Positions 16,950 to 21,870 of a DNA stretch of 40,537 bases are shown piece by piece. Made by a program: the position numbers and the translations under genes. Numbering within the stretch: the stretch's first letter is position 1; every line of letters starts with the position of its first letter. The notes under the pieces were generated by a model. It made no database searches. It was not told the origin of the DNA and was given only the letters and a program-made list of their open reading frames with translations. The stretch is from an uncultured archaeon (GTDB taxonomy: Archaea; Asgardarchaeota; Thorarchaeia; Thorarchaeales; Thorarchaeaceae): the NCBI GenBank assembly GCA_964564335.1, contig CAZMBV010000002.1:1-40537 (forward strand), given 5' to 3'.

Positions 16950-17903
16950 ATGAGCCGGGAGTTTTACAATCTGTCCGACACTCGATTAAAACAAACATTG
17001 GACGCTGGTATCTTCGCAATAACCGGCGAGATTGGTCCCCCAAGAGGTTCTGATCATAAAATTGTCATTGAACGGACGAAATTGATTGCAGATTATTGTG
17101 ATGCAATTAACATTACTGACAATGTTCGTGGTATCCCTACTATGAGTAGCACAGCATGTGCACATATTATTTTAGAAACTGGTGCAGAACCAATAATGCA
17201 ATTATCCACCCGAGATAGAAACAGAATTTCAATAGAGAGTGAACTCTTTGGTGTTTATGCTCTAGGAATTCAGAATATTCTATTTATCACAGGTGATCGT
17301 ACAATTATGGGGCCTCATACCGAAGCGAAAATGGTCTTTGATATTGACTCCATTCAAGCGCTTCAACTTACAAGCAATCTAATGCTGGGTATTGATTCCG
17401 AAGGTGTGGAACTCGAAGGAACTCCTCAGTTCTTCATGGGTTCAACTCTGAATCCGTACGCTGATTCAATCGAATTAGAAGTTCTCCGTGCTCAAAAGAA
17501 GAGAGATGCAGGAGCACAATTCTTTCAGACCCAAGCTATCTTCGATGTAGATAGGTTAGAATCATTCATGGAATTGATTAATAATTTAGAGTTGAAGGTT
17601 TTAGCAGGTATTATCCCCCTCAGAGGACCAAAAATGGCTCGATTCATGAACACGAATGTTCCCGGAATCAAAATTCCTGAGGAATATATCAATCGCCTAG
17701 AATCTGCTGGCAAAGGTCTTAAGGACGATGCGGAGCGGGATGCCATGCGAGAAGAAGGGCTTCTCATCGCTTTGGAAACTATCAAATCGATTCGAAAAAT
17801 CAAAGGAATCGATGGTCTTCATTTGATGGGGATCGGATGGGAAGAGAGTATTCCCGAACTCGTAAAACGGGCTGGGCTTTCACAAAGACCCAAAATGGAG
17901 TGA
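16950..17903 (+). CDS. metF: Methylenetetrahydrofolate (methylene-pterin) reductase, MetF/MTHFR family
   Basis: 317-aa ORF showing the MTHFR pattern: FAITGEIGPPRG, INITDNVRGIPTMSS, EPIMQLSTRDRNR, GIQNILFITGD, AGAQFFQTQAIFD. Confidence 0.75.
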   Translation: MSREFYNLSDTRLKQTLDAGIFAITGEIGPPRGSDHKIVIERTKLIADYCDAINITDNVRGIPTMSSTACAHIILETGAEPIMQLSTRDRNRISIESELFGVYALGIQNILFITGDRTIMGPHTEAKMVFDIDSIQALQLTSNLMLGIDSEGVELEGTPQFFMGSTLNPYADSIELEVLRAQKKRDAGAQFFQTQAIFDVDRLESFMELINNLELKVLAGIIPLRGPKMARFMNTNVPGIKIPEEYINRLESAGKGLKDDAERDAMREEGLLIALETIKSIRKIKGIDGLHLMGIGWEESIPELVKRAGLSQRPKME

Positions 17904-17910
17904 AACTATA

Positions 17911-18828
17911 GTGTTTGTCTTCAAAAAAGAACAACAGTCTTACGATTTTGGTGGGGTCACTATTGGTGGTCATCCTGGTGAGAATCCAACAGTTTTGATT
18001 GGAGGACTCTTCTTTAAAGGTCAATCTATTGTTGAAGATACTAGAGAAGGTCTCTTCGACAAGACTTTAGCATTAGAATGGATTGATTCTGCTAGTGCTA
18101 TGGCTGAGAAGACTGGACATCCTCATTTGATTCAAGCTTACGGACGTACCCCAAGTGCAATGGAGAATCATCTATCATGGCTCTCAGAACACTTCGATGG
18201 TCCCATTATGTTCGAGTCTACAAACTCTGAAGCTAGGAAACGAGCTATAGAGTACTCTGATGAGAGTGGAATAAGCAATCGCGTGATATACAATTCCATA
18301 AACCTCTCAATGAAAGAAGAGGAGAAAGAAGTGTTGAAGAGCAGTTCTCTAAACATGGCTGTTGTACTCGGATGGTCTCCTCGTGCTACATCTCTCCCTG
18401 AGAGAATGAACACAATCACGGATAGTCTCAAACTTTCCAAAGAACTTGGAATTGAGAAAGTTATAGTTGATCCAGCTACCATGCCTGTCGGAGCTGGATA
18501 TGGTTTAGAGCATCGGACAATTCTTGCTGTGAAATCCGAACTCGGTTTGCCAACATGTCTTGCGCCTCATAATGCACCTTCCGCATGGCGCTTCCTTAAA
18601 GAACCAGGATTTGATGACGAATCTACTTACCTGGCAACGATTATTGCATCAACAGTAGCATCTCAAATTCTTGCTACTGACGCGATAATGTACGGCTCTA
18701 TGATACGAGCGAAAGAAGTGTTCGCAGCTGTTGCCCTCATATCAAACGCCATGGCAACAGCAATAGCAGAAGCCAACAATGTACTTGGATTGGAACGAAA
18801 ATTATTCGATTCCCCAACATATGAGTAG
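17911..18828 (+). CDS. mtrH: MtrH-family pterin methyltransferase (tetrahydromethanopterin S-methyltransferase subunit H-like), paralog 1
   Basis: GTG start 7 nt after the metF stop. The N-terminus MFVFKKEQQSYDFGGVTIGGHPGENPTVLIGGLFF is the typical MtrH opening. YNSIN and HNAPSAW motifs are shared with paralog 2. Confidence 0.8.
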   Translation: MFVFKKEQQSYDFGGVTIGGHPGENPTVLIGGLFFKGQSIVEDTREGLFDKTLALEWIDSASAMAEKTGHPHLIQAYGRTPSAMENHLSWLSEHFDGPIMFESTNSEARKRAIEYSDESGISNRVIYNSINLSMKEEEKEVLKSSSLNMAVVLGWSPRATSLPERMNTITDSLKLSKELGIEKVIVDPATMPVGAGYGLEHRTILAVKSELGLPTCLAPHNAPSAWRFLKEPGFDDESTYLATIIASTVASQILATDAIMYGSMIRAKEVFAAVALISNAMATAIAEANNVLGLERKLFDSPTYE

Positions 18829-18840
18829 GAGGTCATACTA

Positions 18841-19530: not shown

Positions 19531-19534
19531 CAAA

Positions 19535-20470
19535 TTGTTTGCATTTGAAAAAGAACAACTCATCTATAATATCGGAGGAGTGAAGATAGGTGGCGGTCTT
19601 GGAGAGACCCCAACAGTTCTTGCTGGTACTATTTTCTATGGTGGACATAAAATCGTCGAAGATGTAAAGAAAGGCATATTCGACAAAGTAAAAGCGACTG
19701 AGCTTGTAAATAAACAGGATGAGATGTCAGTAATGACAGGCAATCCTGCACTTGTTCAGATATTCGCAGAAACATCTGAGGCGATGATTCGCTACATTGA
19801 TTTTATCACTGAACTGACAGCCGCTCCATTTCTCATTGATTCAAGTGATGCCGATGTCCGTCTATCGGGATTAAAACATGCAGAAGAGATAGGACTGCTT
19901 GATCAGGCTATCTACAATTCTATCAATGTGTCCATCACAAAAGAAGAACTCAGAGTACTGGGTGAGATTCAACATGAATGCGCACTTGTTCTTGCATTTA
20001 ATCCGCAGGATTCAACAATCGCTGGAAGAAGAGCAGTTCTTGAAACTGGTGTGATGGAATTAGATAAGGGCCTCTTGGAATTATGCAAGGATATTGGTGT
20101 TACAAAACCTCTGTTAGATACAGCTGTAACTGCAATGGGTGCAGGAGCTGGTTCAGCAGCCGCTTTTACTTTCGTATCTAAAACCCTCTATGGATATCCC
20201 ACTGGTTCTGGGGTTCATAACGCTCCTGCTTCGTGGTCGTGGTTACGGAAGTACAAGAAGATTAACAAAGAAGCATTTCAAACTGCTGACATTGCTTCTA
20301 ACCTAATAGTTCAACTTATGGGAGCTGATTTTGTTTTGTATGGCCCCATTGAGAATGCAGACCGAGCTTTTCCTGTTGTCGCAATGGGTGATGCATTTAC
20401 AGCAGAATCTGCATACTTGGAATTTGGAATAGAACCTGGCCCAGATCATCCGTTCAAAAAATTACTGTGA
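19535..20470 (+). CDS. mtrH: MtrH-family pterin methyltransferase, paralog 2
   Basis: The track ORF is 19493-20470. The likely start is TTG 19535 (GGAGGG 8 nt upstream, 4 nt after the mtrA-like stop), which gives (M)FAFEKEQLIYNIGGVKIGGGLGETPTVLAGTIFY, colinear with paralog 1 and with canonical MtrH. Confidence 0.8.
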   Translation: MFAFEKEQLIYNIGGVKIGGGLGETPTVLAGTIFYGGHKIVEDVKKGIFDKVKATELVNKQDEMSVMTGNPALVQIFAETSEAMIRYIDFITELTAAPFLIDSSDADVRLSGLKHAEEIGLLDQAIYNSINVSITKEELRVLGEIQHECALVLAFNPQDSTIAGRRAVLETGVMELDKGLLELCKDIGVTKPLLDTAVTAMGAGAGSAAAFTFVSKTLYGYPTGSGVHNAPASWSWLRKYKKINKEAFQTADIASNLIVQLMGADFVLYGPIENADRAFPVVAMGDAFTAESAYLEFGIEPGPDHPFKKLL

Positions 20471-21870
20471 TGGTGACAATAAGTTTGCAACGAGTTTTGA
20501 GACCAAAATCGATTGGACTGTCCTCTCTTCGCATTGGTCCGTTTTACACTGTTGCATCAGTTGAACTTGGAAATACCACTACTAAAGCTATTATAGTTAC
20601 AACAAATCTAAAGACCGCTGAAATCTTCGAGATTGAAAAAGAAGTTCGCATGACGCGGGATGTTAGACCTCCAAAAGCAGGTGAGGAAATATTCGGTGAA
20701 ACAGTCTTTGGTGTAGCGTTAACCAAGGAATCGGTTGCTGAGATGATTTCAAGCATTCTTACTTCGGTTCTTTCAAAATCCAATCTTAGCATTGATAGAG
20801 ACCTACATTTTGTTGTTCGGTCTACCGGAGTGACAGCTGGATTCGCCAGTCCTGAGGAAGTTGGATCGATTGTCAAAGCTCTTGCAGATGGTTGTCTTCA
20901 AGCAGGTATTCCACCACGAAAAATGACTTCTGCCATGACTCCTGAACAACTCCCTCCGGGATTACGTGATTTTACATGGTTGAAGAAGGTCTACTTCGAT
21001 GGAGCAATTGCATCATCACTACCTCCATCAAACACAGAAATCGTGGCGAATGAGATGGAAGGCGAACTTGTCACAGCGGGACTTAAAGGAGCAGTGAAGG
21101 GAACTGCAATTGACTTCAGAAACCCTGTGATGACGCTTGACTTTGGAACTACGCTTGCTGGGAGAATCACTGATTCAGGTATGCCATATGCCAAAACAAT
21201 TGGTTCCTTTGCCGGTCTTGCAGGCGCCATTCCTGATGCTATTATTCGTGGTGCTGGTCTTGCTCAATCTGGCACAGGTTGTGTTCTAGATATACCTCAA
21301 TCCAAAGCGCGTGTACGTGTTGAGATCAACCCGGTGGACATATTCGAAGCGCATGATTTGATTAGTATTGAGCGTGTACCAGAATCAGCTTCTCGTTATG
21401 GAACGGTTCCTGTCAATCCGCAGGCAGCAAATGAATCTAATGTAGTATTGATAGGTGTGGATGCAGACCTGACAAAGTTGGAAAATTATGGCAAGATATT
21501 CTCTGAAGGATATAATGTGGACTATGTGCATGAAGTCATTGATGGAATTCAAGCTGGCATAGTTGAGCGTATTCTTAAGGTGGCTGAATCTGAGAATTTG
21601 ATTCTCAAAGAGACCTCCCTCGGTCTGACCGGGCGTGCAATCACGACAGGTCGAAAACCTGAGCTTATAGCAAAATACTTGAAAACGAGTTTCGGAGAAC
21701 TCTGGACTGACCATCATCAACTTGTATTTGTCGAAGATGGACTTGCTATGGGTGCAGCTGTTGCAGCAAGATGTATGAATTCGATGGGTACCACAAGACA
21801 TCCAATGGGTGGTAGAAAGGGCGACCGATGTATAATGGCTGAAAGGATGAAGCTACAAGAAAGAAAGTAA
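20467..21870 (+). CDS. ASKHA-fold (actin/Hsp70/sugar-kinase-like) ATPase-like protein; possible corrinoid-protein activase/reactivase
   Basis: GTGA overlap with the mtrH-2 stop. A phosphate-1-like VELGNTTTKAI sits near the N-terminus. A second glycine-rich loop (LDFGTTLAGRI) and a C-terminal LTGRA...VEDGLAMGAAV are also present. The function is inferred from context only. Confidence 0.45.
   Translation: MMVTISLQRVLRPKSIGLSSLRIGPFYTVASVELGNTTTKAIIVTTNLKTAEIFEIEKEVRMTRDVRPPKAGEEIFGETVFGVALTKESVAEMISSILTSVLSKSNLSIDRDLHFVVRSTGVTAGFASPEEVGSIVKALADGCLQAGIPPRKMTSAMTPEQLPPGLRDFTWLKKVYFDGAIASSLPPSNTEIVANEMEGELVTAGLKGAVKGTAIDFRNPVMTLDFGTTLAGRITDSGMPYAKTIGSFAGLAGAIPDAIIRGAGLAQSGTGCVLDIPQSKARVRVEINPVDIFEAHDLISIERVPESASRYGTVPVNPQAANESNVVLIGVDADLTKLENYGKIFSEGYNVDYVHEVIDGIQAGIVERILKVAESENLILKETSLGLTGRAITTGRKPELIAKYLKTSFGELWTDHHQLVFVEDGLAMGAAVAARCMNSMGTTRHPMGGRKGDRCIMAERMKLQERK

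Follow-up and report, generated by a model that had tools for sequence, protein, structure and literature searches.

A soluble, Mtr-derived gene block with MetF, a second MtrH and methanogenesis marker 14 in Thorarchaeia: a candidate methyl-transfer module

Several described systems move methyl groups with the help of a protein-bound cobamide. In the eight-subunit membrane complex Mtr of methanogens, MtrH shifts the methyl group between methyl-tetrahydromethanopterin (methyl-H4MPT) and Co(I) of the MtrA cobamide. MtgAB, MtoABCD, MtaABC/RamA and CoFeSP/RACo share the logic of a carrier placed between two methyltransferases and served by an ATP-dependent ASKHA helper, and MtoA is an MtrH-family enzyme, as is MtgA. 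Methanosarcina and other methanogens encode MtrA and MtrH paralogs together in MtxXAH, a system of unknown function (PMC3087415), and among non-methanogenic Asgard archaea, Atabeyarchaeia and Freyarchaeia carry soluble MtrA-like proteins and MtrH that are thought to handle methyl-H4MPT (PMC11291895). For Thorarchaeia, the co-occurrence of MtrA and MtrH (MtrAH) with methanogenesis marker 14 is on record, their MtrAH falls in the canonical clade, and MtrB-G are absent genome-wide (Adam et al. 2022, PMC9635834). Here we analyse a 40,537-nt stretch of DNA from an uncultured archaeon of the Thorarchaeaceae (assembly GCA_964564335.1, contig CAZMBV010000002.1, positions 1 to 40,537 of the forward strand; hereafter the window), in which five tightly packed genes at 16950-21870 on the + strand encode a MetF-type reductase, a diverged MtrH paralog (MtrH1), a soluble MtrA-like corrinoid protein, a canonical-type MtrH (MtrH2) and marker 14 (hereafter M14). 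We propose, tentatively and with confidence somewhat short of even, that this operon is a soluble, membrane-free, Mtr-derived methyl-pterin:cobamide methyl-transfer module, rewired to a MetF-type reductase and with M14 as its activase.

The first gene (16950..17903, 317 aa) encodes a MetF/methylenetetrahydrofolate reductase (MTHFR)-family methylene-pterin reductase and matches PF02219 with 117 bits against a cut-off of 24. It is followed by mtrH1 (17911..18828, 305 aa, GTG start; PF02007, 247 bits), the gene for the MtrA-like protein (18841..19530, 229 aa, CTG start; PF04208, 160 bits), mtrH2 (19535..20470, 311 aa, TTG start; PF02007, 389 bits) and the gene for M14, a DUF2114 protein with a predicted ASKHA fold (20467..21870, 467 aa; PF09887, 597 bits). 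These family matches bear out the gene identities that a preliminary description of this DNA had assigned; that description had called the fifth gene an ASKHA protein, and it missed that this gene is methanogenesis marker 14.

One genome per GTDB species was scanned with an M14 profile; the best 80 of the 349 loci obtained were retained, and seven window proteins were run by tblastn against these 80 loci and five metagenomic loci. Six sequences taken as 'MtrH1' that had MtrH2-like residues were left out, because they came from loci without mtrH1, in which the query had matched mtrH2. The order MtrH1-MtrA-MtrH2-M14 was present in all of the approximately 50 species-level Thorarchaeia loci with sufficient upstream flank, MetF lies directly 5' of mtrH1 in all of them except L063, where no MetF occurs within 8 kb, and protein identity across these genomes ranges from 44 to 92%. 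The closest homologs of the window proteins are all named Candidatus Thorarchaeota, and no copy of the five-gene block was found outside Thorarchaeia-like Asgard genomes among the best 80 of the 349 M14 loci and the five metagenomic ones. A search for the block outside the class by way of the nearest relatives of MtrH1 gave no informative foreign context. The arrangement is not due to chance, and the block, far from being confined to the genome in which it was noticed, is class-wide in Thorarchaeia.

Among the described systems, methanogen Mtr resembles the operon in both sequence and gene order. The MtrA-like protein has the cobamide domain with an equivalent of the His84 ligand, MtrH2 passes the curated mtrH model, and the MtrA, MtrH2 and M14 of Thorarchaeia are 45-53% identical to their methanogen counterparts. 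The order A..H-M14, with DUF2114 downstream, is common to both: in 7 of the 19 methanogen loci, mtrA..mtrH is followed on the same strand by M14, which is placed directly 3' of mtrH in several methanogen orders. In contrast to methanogen Mtr, the Thorarchaeia operon has neither MtrB-G nor the membrane helix of MtrA, and therefore no Na+ pumping is possible and the coenzyme M (CoM) site of MtrE is missing. As the preliminary description had stated, no MtrB-G-like open reading frame (ORF) was found in the window, and the gap of 4 nt between mtrA and mtrH2 leaves no room for mtrF or mtrG; MtrB-G membrane subunits were likewise not found in the Thorarchaeia loci compared. Relative to Mtr, a diverged second MtrH and MetF have been added, and the tail of MtrA has been swapped for a soluble segment.

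MtrA-MtrH2-M14 is a vertically inherited Mtr remnant that is already in the literature (PMC9635834), whereas for the Thorarchaeia block the searchable literature yielded no mention of MetF, an additional MtrH or the altered end of MtrA, nor of a mechanism for M14. What is new here is a defined seven-gene block in Thorarchaeia, from MetF to a LarC-like gene described below, together with a Thorarchaeia-specific MtrH1 that has a fixed active-site change, a soluble MtrA tail, and a structural and motif case for marker 14 as a predicted ASKHA ATPase with conserved cysteines. The observation is real and robust and in part already published, and its interpretation is reasonable and only partly supported.

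The other systems differ from the operon as follows. Three-component systems use a carrier of the B12-binding-domain type, whereas the Thorarchaeia carrier has the MtrA fold. Both methyltransferases here are, unlike those of the three-component systems, MtrH-type pterin TIM barrels, a family to which MtgA of the MtgAB-type systems itself belongs, and no substrate-specific methyltransferase is present. RACE-type corrinoid activators carry an Fe-S ferredoxin domain, whereas M14 has none and forms a separate family, DUF2114. The comparison with mtx genes drawn in the preliminary description proved weak: mtxX is part of that system, and neither mtxX nor a phosphotransacetylase-like family was found among the window ORFs scanned; MtrH2 scores as a canonical mtrH, over the curated cut-off; and mtx operons are not known to include M14 or MetF. 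Atabeyarchaeia and Freyarchaeia have MtrA-like/MtrH fusions as well as stand-alone forms, whereas the Thorarchaeia genes are separate, of canonical type and linked to M14 and MetF.

The MtrA-like protein retains the features expected of a cobamide carrier. The motif GPEVPGHLTG is encoded at 19051-19080, and its His77 (codon 19069-19071) aligns with the corrinoid-ligand His84 of M. marburgensis MtrA; GPEVPGH, including His77, is invariant in 17 Thorarchaeia sequences. Residues 5-165 match MtrA of 8Q3V (chain A) with 155 bits, and identity to the cytoplasmic domain of methanogen MtrA is 48-50%. A C-terminal membrane helix is missing: over 19 residues, Kyte-Doolittle hydropathy peaks at 1.4, in the core domain, whereas the C-terminus of methanogen MtrA scores 2.0-2.8. 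The earlier claim of a soluble protein that keeps its corrinoid-ligand His agrees with these results. Where methanogen MtrA has its helix, a conserved soluble tail of about 60 aa (approximately 19336-19527) is found, with the pattern LLPE[YF]G...HPS...GT.L and invariant P182, E183, P208, G221 and T222; searched alone against protein families, the 68-residue tail matched nothing. The exchange of the membrane helix for this conserved soluble segment is consistent with a cytoplasmic shuttle.

The two MtrH proteins are only 34% identical, in line with the marked divergence that had been described for them, and they differ in how closely they resemble methanogen MtrH. MtrH2 scores 395 bits with TIGR01114, over the curated mtrH equivalog cut-off of 271, and 267 bits with M. 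mazei MtrH (9QTP); it is 45-51% identical to methanogen MtrH and keeps both the pterin Asp and the catalytic Asn. MtrH1 scores 244 bits with the same model, under the cut-off. Representatives at least 50% identical to MtrH1 occur only in Thorarchaeia, and in an exhaustive search of 1.8 billion representatives no protein outside this class exceeded 36% identity; the nearest outsiders are ordinary methanogen MtrH of Methanothrix, Methanosarcina and Methanosphaera, the nearest single one (P0244) being an ordinary MtrH of Methanothrix/Methanotrichaceae. In a neighbour-joining tree, MtrH1 formed its own clade on a long branch in 100 of 100 bootstraps and was never sister to MtrH2 in the replicates, whereas MtrH2 grouped with canonical MtrH.

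MtrH1 evolves under constraint similar to that on MtrH2, with identities of 62% and 64% within the two clades, and of the 35 positions conserved at 80% or more in the family it keeps 28. The catalytic Asn (N228 of MtgA, mutated in 6SJP by Badmann and Groll) is retained. M200 and P201 are retained as well, and Trp stands for Phe156 as a fixed change (F156W); the M. mazei equivalents of these last three residues touch the corrin. Two further changes are fixed: every genuine MtrH1 has Glu in place of the pterin-binding Asp (D103 of MtgA, mutated in 6SJO), and Arg in place of Glu79 (E79R), which contacts MtrA in M. mazei MtrH. On these features, MtrH1 resembles a functional enzyme that faces the corrinoid, with changes in its pterin pocket and in its docking, more than a dead scaffold. 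Because tetrahydrofolate (H4F)-specific MtgA and H4MPT-specific MtrH both have Asp at the pterin-binding position, MtrH1 is, as far as its residues tell, unusual and not recognisably 'H4F-type'.

MetF is distant from characterised enzymes, with an E-value of about 1e-6 to PDB entries. In NCBIfam it comes closest to the MTHFR half of PRK08645 (218 bits), under the equivalog cut-offs. Its catalytic Glu, Asp (in ITGD) and Gln (in QTQ) align with those of human MTHFR (6FCX), corresponding to E28, D120 and Q183 of the E. coli enzyme. For other archaea, a replacement of Mer by MetF has been suggested (PMC6478937, PMC7380581), and according to a review, Thorarchaeota metagenome-assembled genomes contain only part of the coenzyme F420 biosynthesis genes (PMC8498797). 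This partial gene set fits, and does not prove, the use of MetF in place of the F420-dependent Mer.

M14 is a clear member of the marker 14 family, with 590 bits to TIGR03285 and approximately 52% identity to methanogen orthologs. Its only Pfam and NCBIfam matches are DUF2114 and marker 14, which cover residues 25-466 and contain no ferredoxin motif, and its sequence gave nothing meaningful against PDB sequences (best E-value 0.3). In a Foldseek search, its AlphaFold2 model (pLDDT 79, pTM 0.83) matched ASKHA-fold proteins only, namely TsaD/Qri7, RACo, type III pantothenate kinase, acetate and sugar kinases and Hsp70, many of them with a probability of 1.0; RACo stood at ranks 4 (4C1N_K, E-value 1.5e-5) and 11 (3ZYY_Y). 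There are 112 near-invariant residues between M14 of Thorarchaeia and that of methanogens, including ELGNTTTK, DFGTTLAGR and GxTGR. From the model and these motifs, M14 is predicted to have an ASKHA fold with three conserved motifs of nucleotide-binding type, in agreement with what had been suggested for the fifth gene. Also among the 112 residues are the only three invariant cysteines, C143, C436 and C455, which do not vary among 65 marker 14 sequences from Thorarchaeia and 19 from methanogens; these cysteines could form a metal or redox site, and two of the three lie in a C-terminal segment to which AlphaFold2 assigns low confidence.

The gene for the family to which marker 14 belongs, arCOG04866, lies close to mtr and is absent from the Mtr-less Methanomassiliicoccales (Borrel et al. 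2014, PMC4153887), and ASKHA ATPases are the scaffold of corrinoid reductive activators as well as of dimeric activators with a Cys-ligated cluster ('archerase') (PMC7317905). M14 is likely to be an ATP-dependent activase or chaperone of the MtrA cobamide. An activase is suggested by its strict association with Mtr, by its retention where only MtrA and MtrH remain, by an ASKHA fold that is the scaffold of RACE activators and of 'archerase' ATPases, and by its invariant cysteines. The corrinoid-reactivase role put forward in the preliminary description is favoured by the co-occurrence with Mtr, the retention in Thorarchaeia and the RACo match, and disfavoured by the lack of an Fe-S ferredoxin domain.

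In the module that we propose, MetF would convert a reduced pterin from its methylene to its methyl form, or back, and thereby supply or consume methyl-pterin. MtrH2 would act as MtrH does in Mtr, with methyl transfer between methyl-H4MPT and the Co(I) cobamide on MtrA. MtrH1 would catalyse another half-reaction, in which methyl-Co(III)-MtrA meets a pterin-type partner of a different kind, and this would replace the lost membrane half MtrB-G and CoM. Where MtrA is adventitiously oxidised to Co(II), M14 would use ATP to restore Co(I); the electrons would come either from an external donor or from a centre formed by the three invariant cysteines of M14. The net effect would be to join a MetF-dependent methyl-pterin pool to the methyl-H4MPT pool that serves the archaeal acetyl-CoA synthase, with flux that may run either way. 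A shuttle from H4F to H4MPT via the two MtrH is a possibility, and we know of no described enzyme system for a cobamide-mediated pterin-to-pterin methyl shuttle. The full combination, in which the operon is such a shuttle, with MtrH1 and MtrH2 acting on different pterins and linking a folate-type pool to H4MPT, and in which DUF2114 is a ferredoxin-less, ATP-dependent corrinoid activase that also services methanogen Mtr, would have to hold in all its parts and is, we believe, unlikely as a whole.

Several points weigh against this proposal. The Asp-to-Glu change in MtrH1 resembles neither H4F-specific MtgA nor H4MPT-specific MtrH. In the Mtr complex, MtrH is a homodimer (bioRxiv 10.64898/2026.07.03.736320), so that two paralogs need not mean two reactions, and the methyl acceptor may be encoded elsewhere, for example core-MetE or CoM. 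For M14, the Foldseek TM-scores are modest (0.3-0.5), RACo is no nearer than TsaD/Qri7 or the sugar kinases, no ferredoxin-type Fe-S domain is present, and no RACE family model was matched.

In the main alternative, MtrH1 and MtrH2 would replace the MtrH homodimer as a heterodimer that carries out the methyl-H4MPT:Co(I)-MtrA transfer only, the methyl-cobamide then passing to an enzyme encoded elsewhere, most plausibly the archaeal core-MetE (a methylcobalamin:homocysteine methyltransferase), so that the operon would serve methionine and S-adenosylmethionine supply, with MetF in the place of Mer. A single half-reaction of this kind is as simple an idea as two pterins, and it agrees with the finding that, within the MtrH dimer of Mtr, the membrane-proximal protomer alone engages MtrA (bioRxiv 10.64898/2026.07.03.736320). 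Archaeal and bacterial core-MetE use methylated corrinoids, with a corrinoid protein, possibly fed by MtrH, as the proposed donor (PMC7005905); a corrinoid protein-MtrH pair adjoins metE in Ca. Methanomethylicus (PMC7886697); among curated models, one for a bifunctional homocysteine methyltransferase/MTHFR comes nearest to MetF, through its MTHFR half; and the proposals of MetF for Mer in other archaea, cited above, suit this scheme equally. However, no metE or homocysteine-binding gene was found in the window or in the conserved block, and the catalytic Asn, the corrin contacts and the MtrH2-like constraint of MtrH1 exceed the needs of a structural subunit, while E79R, which reverses the charge at a site of contact with MtrA, suggests that MtrH1 docks in a way of its own. 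We regard the heterodimer as unlikely.

A second alternative concerns M14 alone, which might be an ATP-dependent chaperone for loading or exchange of the MtrA cobamide, or a small-molecule kinase with a product that Mtr needs, and not a reductive activase. The ferredoxin domain found in all RACE activators is missing, DUF2114 is the sole Pfam match, and no family stands out as nearest among the structural matches, which range over TsaD/Qri7, type III pantothenate kinases, sugar kinases and Hsp70. B12 reactivases of the DdrA and EutA type are ASKHA proteins too, and these reactivases of B12 eliminases offer an analogy for a chaperone. In contrast, no DdrA or EutA structure was among the top 50 Foldseek matches, in which RACo ranked 4 and 11, and three cysteines that are invariant in both Thorarchaeia and methanogens are more typical of a redox or metal centre. 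A chaperone or kinase seems to us doubtful, if far from negligible, and we retain the activase as the working assignment for M14.

It is also conceivable that the operon serves methylotrophic entry, as in MtoABCD and MtgAB: MttB-, MtaB- or MtoB-like enzymes encoded elsewhere would methylate MtrA, the MtrH proteins would pass the methyl group to one or more pterins, and MetF would oxidise the methyl-pterin towards CO2 or feed acetyl-CoA synthase. MtgA (of the 6SJ8 family) is indeed an MtrH-family corrinoid:pterin methyltransferase, corrinoid protein-MtrH pairs in Bathyarchaeia and Methanomethylicia have been proposed to feed the Wood-Ljungdahl pathway (PMC7886697, PMC9635834), and MtrH lies near methylamine methyltransferase genes in Asgard relatives (PMC11291895). 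This scheme is nevertheless quite unlikely in our estimate, as no substrate-specific methyltransferase gene was found in the window or in approximately 60 Thorarchaeia loci with up to 8 kb of flank, and as the carrier is of the MtrA type and not of the B12-binding-domain type known for such methyltransferases. Finally, although Thorarchaeia MtrAH and m26 have been called remnants of ancestral methanogenesis (PMC9635834), it is very improbable that the block is a decaying relic of methanogenesis with conserved gene order and no joint function, given that the five ORFs are intact in approximately 50 species that have diverged to 44-60% identity, that catalytic and ligand residues are invariant, that junctions are short or overlapping, and that MetF stays attached although the upstream flank differs between loci.

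Our proposal of a soluble module is of interest beyond Thorarchaeia. Marker 14 is a near-universal methanogen gene that has been recognised since about 2010, and the searchable papers offer nothing on its function beyond its association with Mtr, to which it is said to be 'tied'. To our knowledge, no explanation has been given of how the cobamide of Mtr stays in, or regains, the Co(I) state in vivo. Because M14 is kept with soluble MtrA and MtrH alone, its function would lie on the MtrA/MtrH side of Mtr and not on the membrane side. An all-soluble set of proteins makes marker 14 and the reactivation of an Mtr-type cobamide testable, and is far easier to handle than an eight-subunit membrane complex. 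For Asgard physiology, the operon would tie a MetF-type reductase, throughout the class, to the methyl branch supplying acetyl-CoA synthase, and it bears on whether one-carbon (C1) metabolism in Thorarchaeia is acetogenic, methylotrophic or mixed.

Successive junctions of the operon measure 7, 12, 4 and -4 nt, the last becoming -1 if M14 starts at the alternative ATG 20470 (466 aa). The tight packing noted in the preliminary description stands, whereas the short junction between mtrH1 and mtrA (12 nt) holds only if mtrA starts at CTG 18841. There is no canonical start codon at the conserved N-terminus of mtrA, where this CTG is found; the same position is occupied by ATG in 30 relatives, GTG in 2 and TTG in 1, and the two closest loci (L004 and L005) also have CTG. 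Relative to L011, the start differs by one A-to-C change. If translation began at TTG 18934, the first canonical start in frame, mtrH1 and mtrA would be 105 nt apart, and 31 conserved residues (EWPPVAGDF...CVAICTLGK) that match residues 9-40 of the solved MtrA would be lost; ORF callers that ignore CTG thus yield a protein that is short by these 31 residues. For MtrH2, TTG 19535 is the most likely start rather than GTG 19493, because the resulting 311 aa equal the length of its relatives.

Shine-Dalgarno-like GGAG(G) precedes mtrH1, mtrA and mtrH2, and 27 nt 5' of the MetF ATG, a TATA-like box read from the sequence (AAATTAA, 16917..16923, + strand) is a possible archaeal promoter for a leaderless or near-leaderless operon transcript. 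The stop codon of mtrH1 is TAG in 55 of 57 relatives, which can be explained by TAGGAGG (18826-18832) doubling as the Shine-Dalgarno site of mtrA. This TAG is in frame with mtrA here, but in only 20 of the 57 relatives. Read-through or a pyrrolysine-containing fusion of MtrH1 and MtrA was considered and ruled out, since all of the 120 closest MtrH1 homologs stop at the same place, and it is also contradicted by the Shine-Dalgarno role of TAGGAGG and by the varying frame; the in-frame TAG is coincidental. Scans of the window for tRNA and Rfam families gave no matches.

Two further genes accompany the operon 3' of M14 in nearly all Thorarchaeia loci. In the window, 46 nt containing TTTATTTT separate M14 from a gene for a CofE-like gamma-glutamyl ligase (21917..22696, + strand; PF01996, 230 bits; TIGR01916, 180.6 bits against a cut-off of 180.65), which is followed by a full-length LarC-like (LarC1 + LarC2) protein of the nickel-insertion family (22766..24235, + strand; PF01969, 304 bits), with 145 bits to TIGR00299 and 101 bits to NF052512, both over the cut-offs. 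The exceptions are L032, with a 2.5-kb insertion ahead of CofE, and L063, in which CofE and LarC are inverted and upstream and remain beside the cluster even so. Whether the CofE-like and LarC-like proteins are members of the methyl-transfer system is uncertain; the substrate of the former may be F420 or the glutamyl tail of a pterin. The LarC-like gene and a convergent gene for a family B DNA polymerase overlap by 11 nt at their 3' ends (24225-24235), a pair that is kept in L001-L005. Elsewhere in the window, a ThyA-family ORF of 230 aa (38859-39551, - strand) matches only profile positions 88-218 of 266 and is either a short or divergent thymidylate synthase or an ORF with a mis-called start; it bears on the question of the C1 carrier.

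The DNA 5' of MetF varies by lineage, with giant surface proteins here and an HflX-like GTPase elsewhere. In the window, two adjacent giant ORFs of 2300 and 2630 aa (2080-16876), the second with a C-terminal hydrophobic anchor, probably encode cell-surface proteins; they lie directly 5' of the operon here and in L004, and not in L001 or L002, and the L004 ortholog of the second shows faint FG-GAP/beta-propeller matches. Downstream, at 27037-31175, a cluster of eukaryote-signature type comprises two Ras-family small GTPases, a Roadblock/LC7 protein, a WD40 propeller and a HEAT-repeat protein, of which the Ras-family GTPases, Roadblock/LC7 and WD40 are Asgard hallmarks, and at 31588-33058 it is followed by two adjacent KaiC-family ATPase genes (PF06745, 241 and 101 bits).

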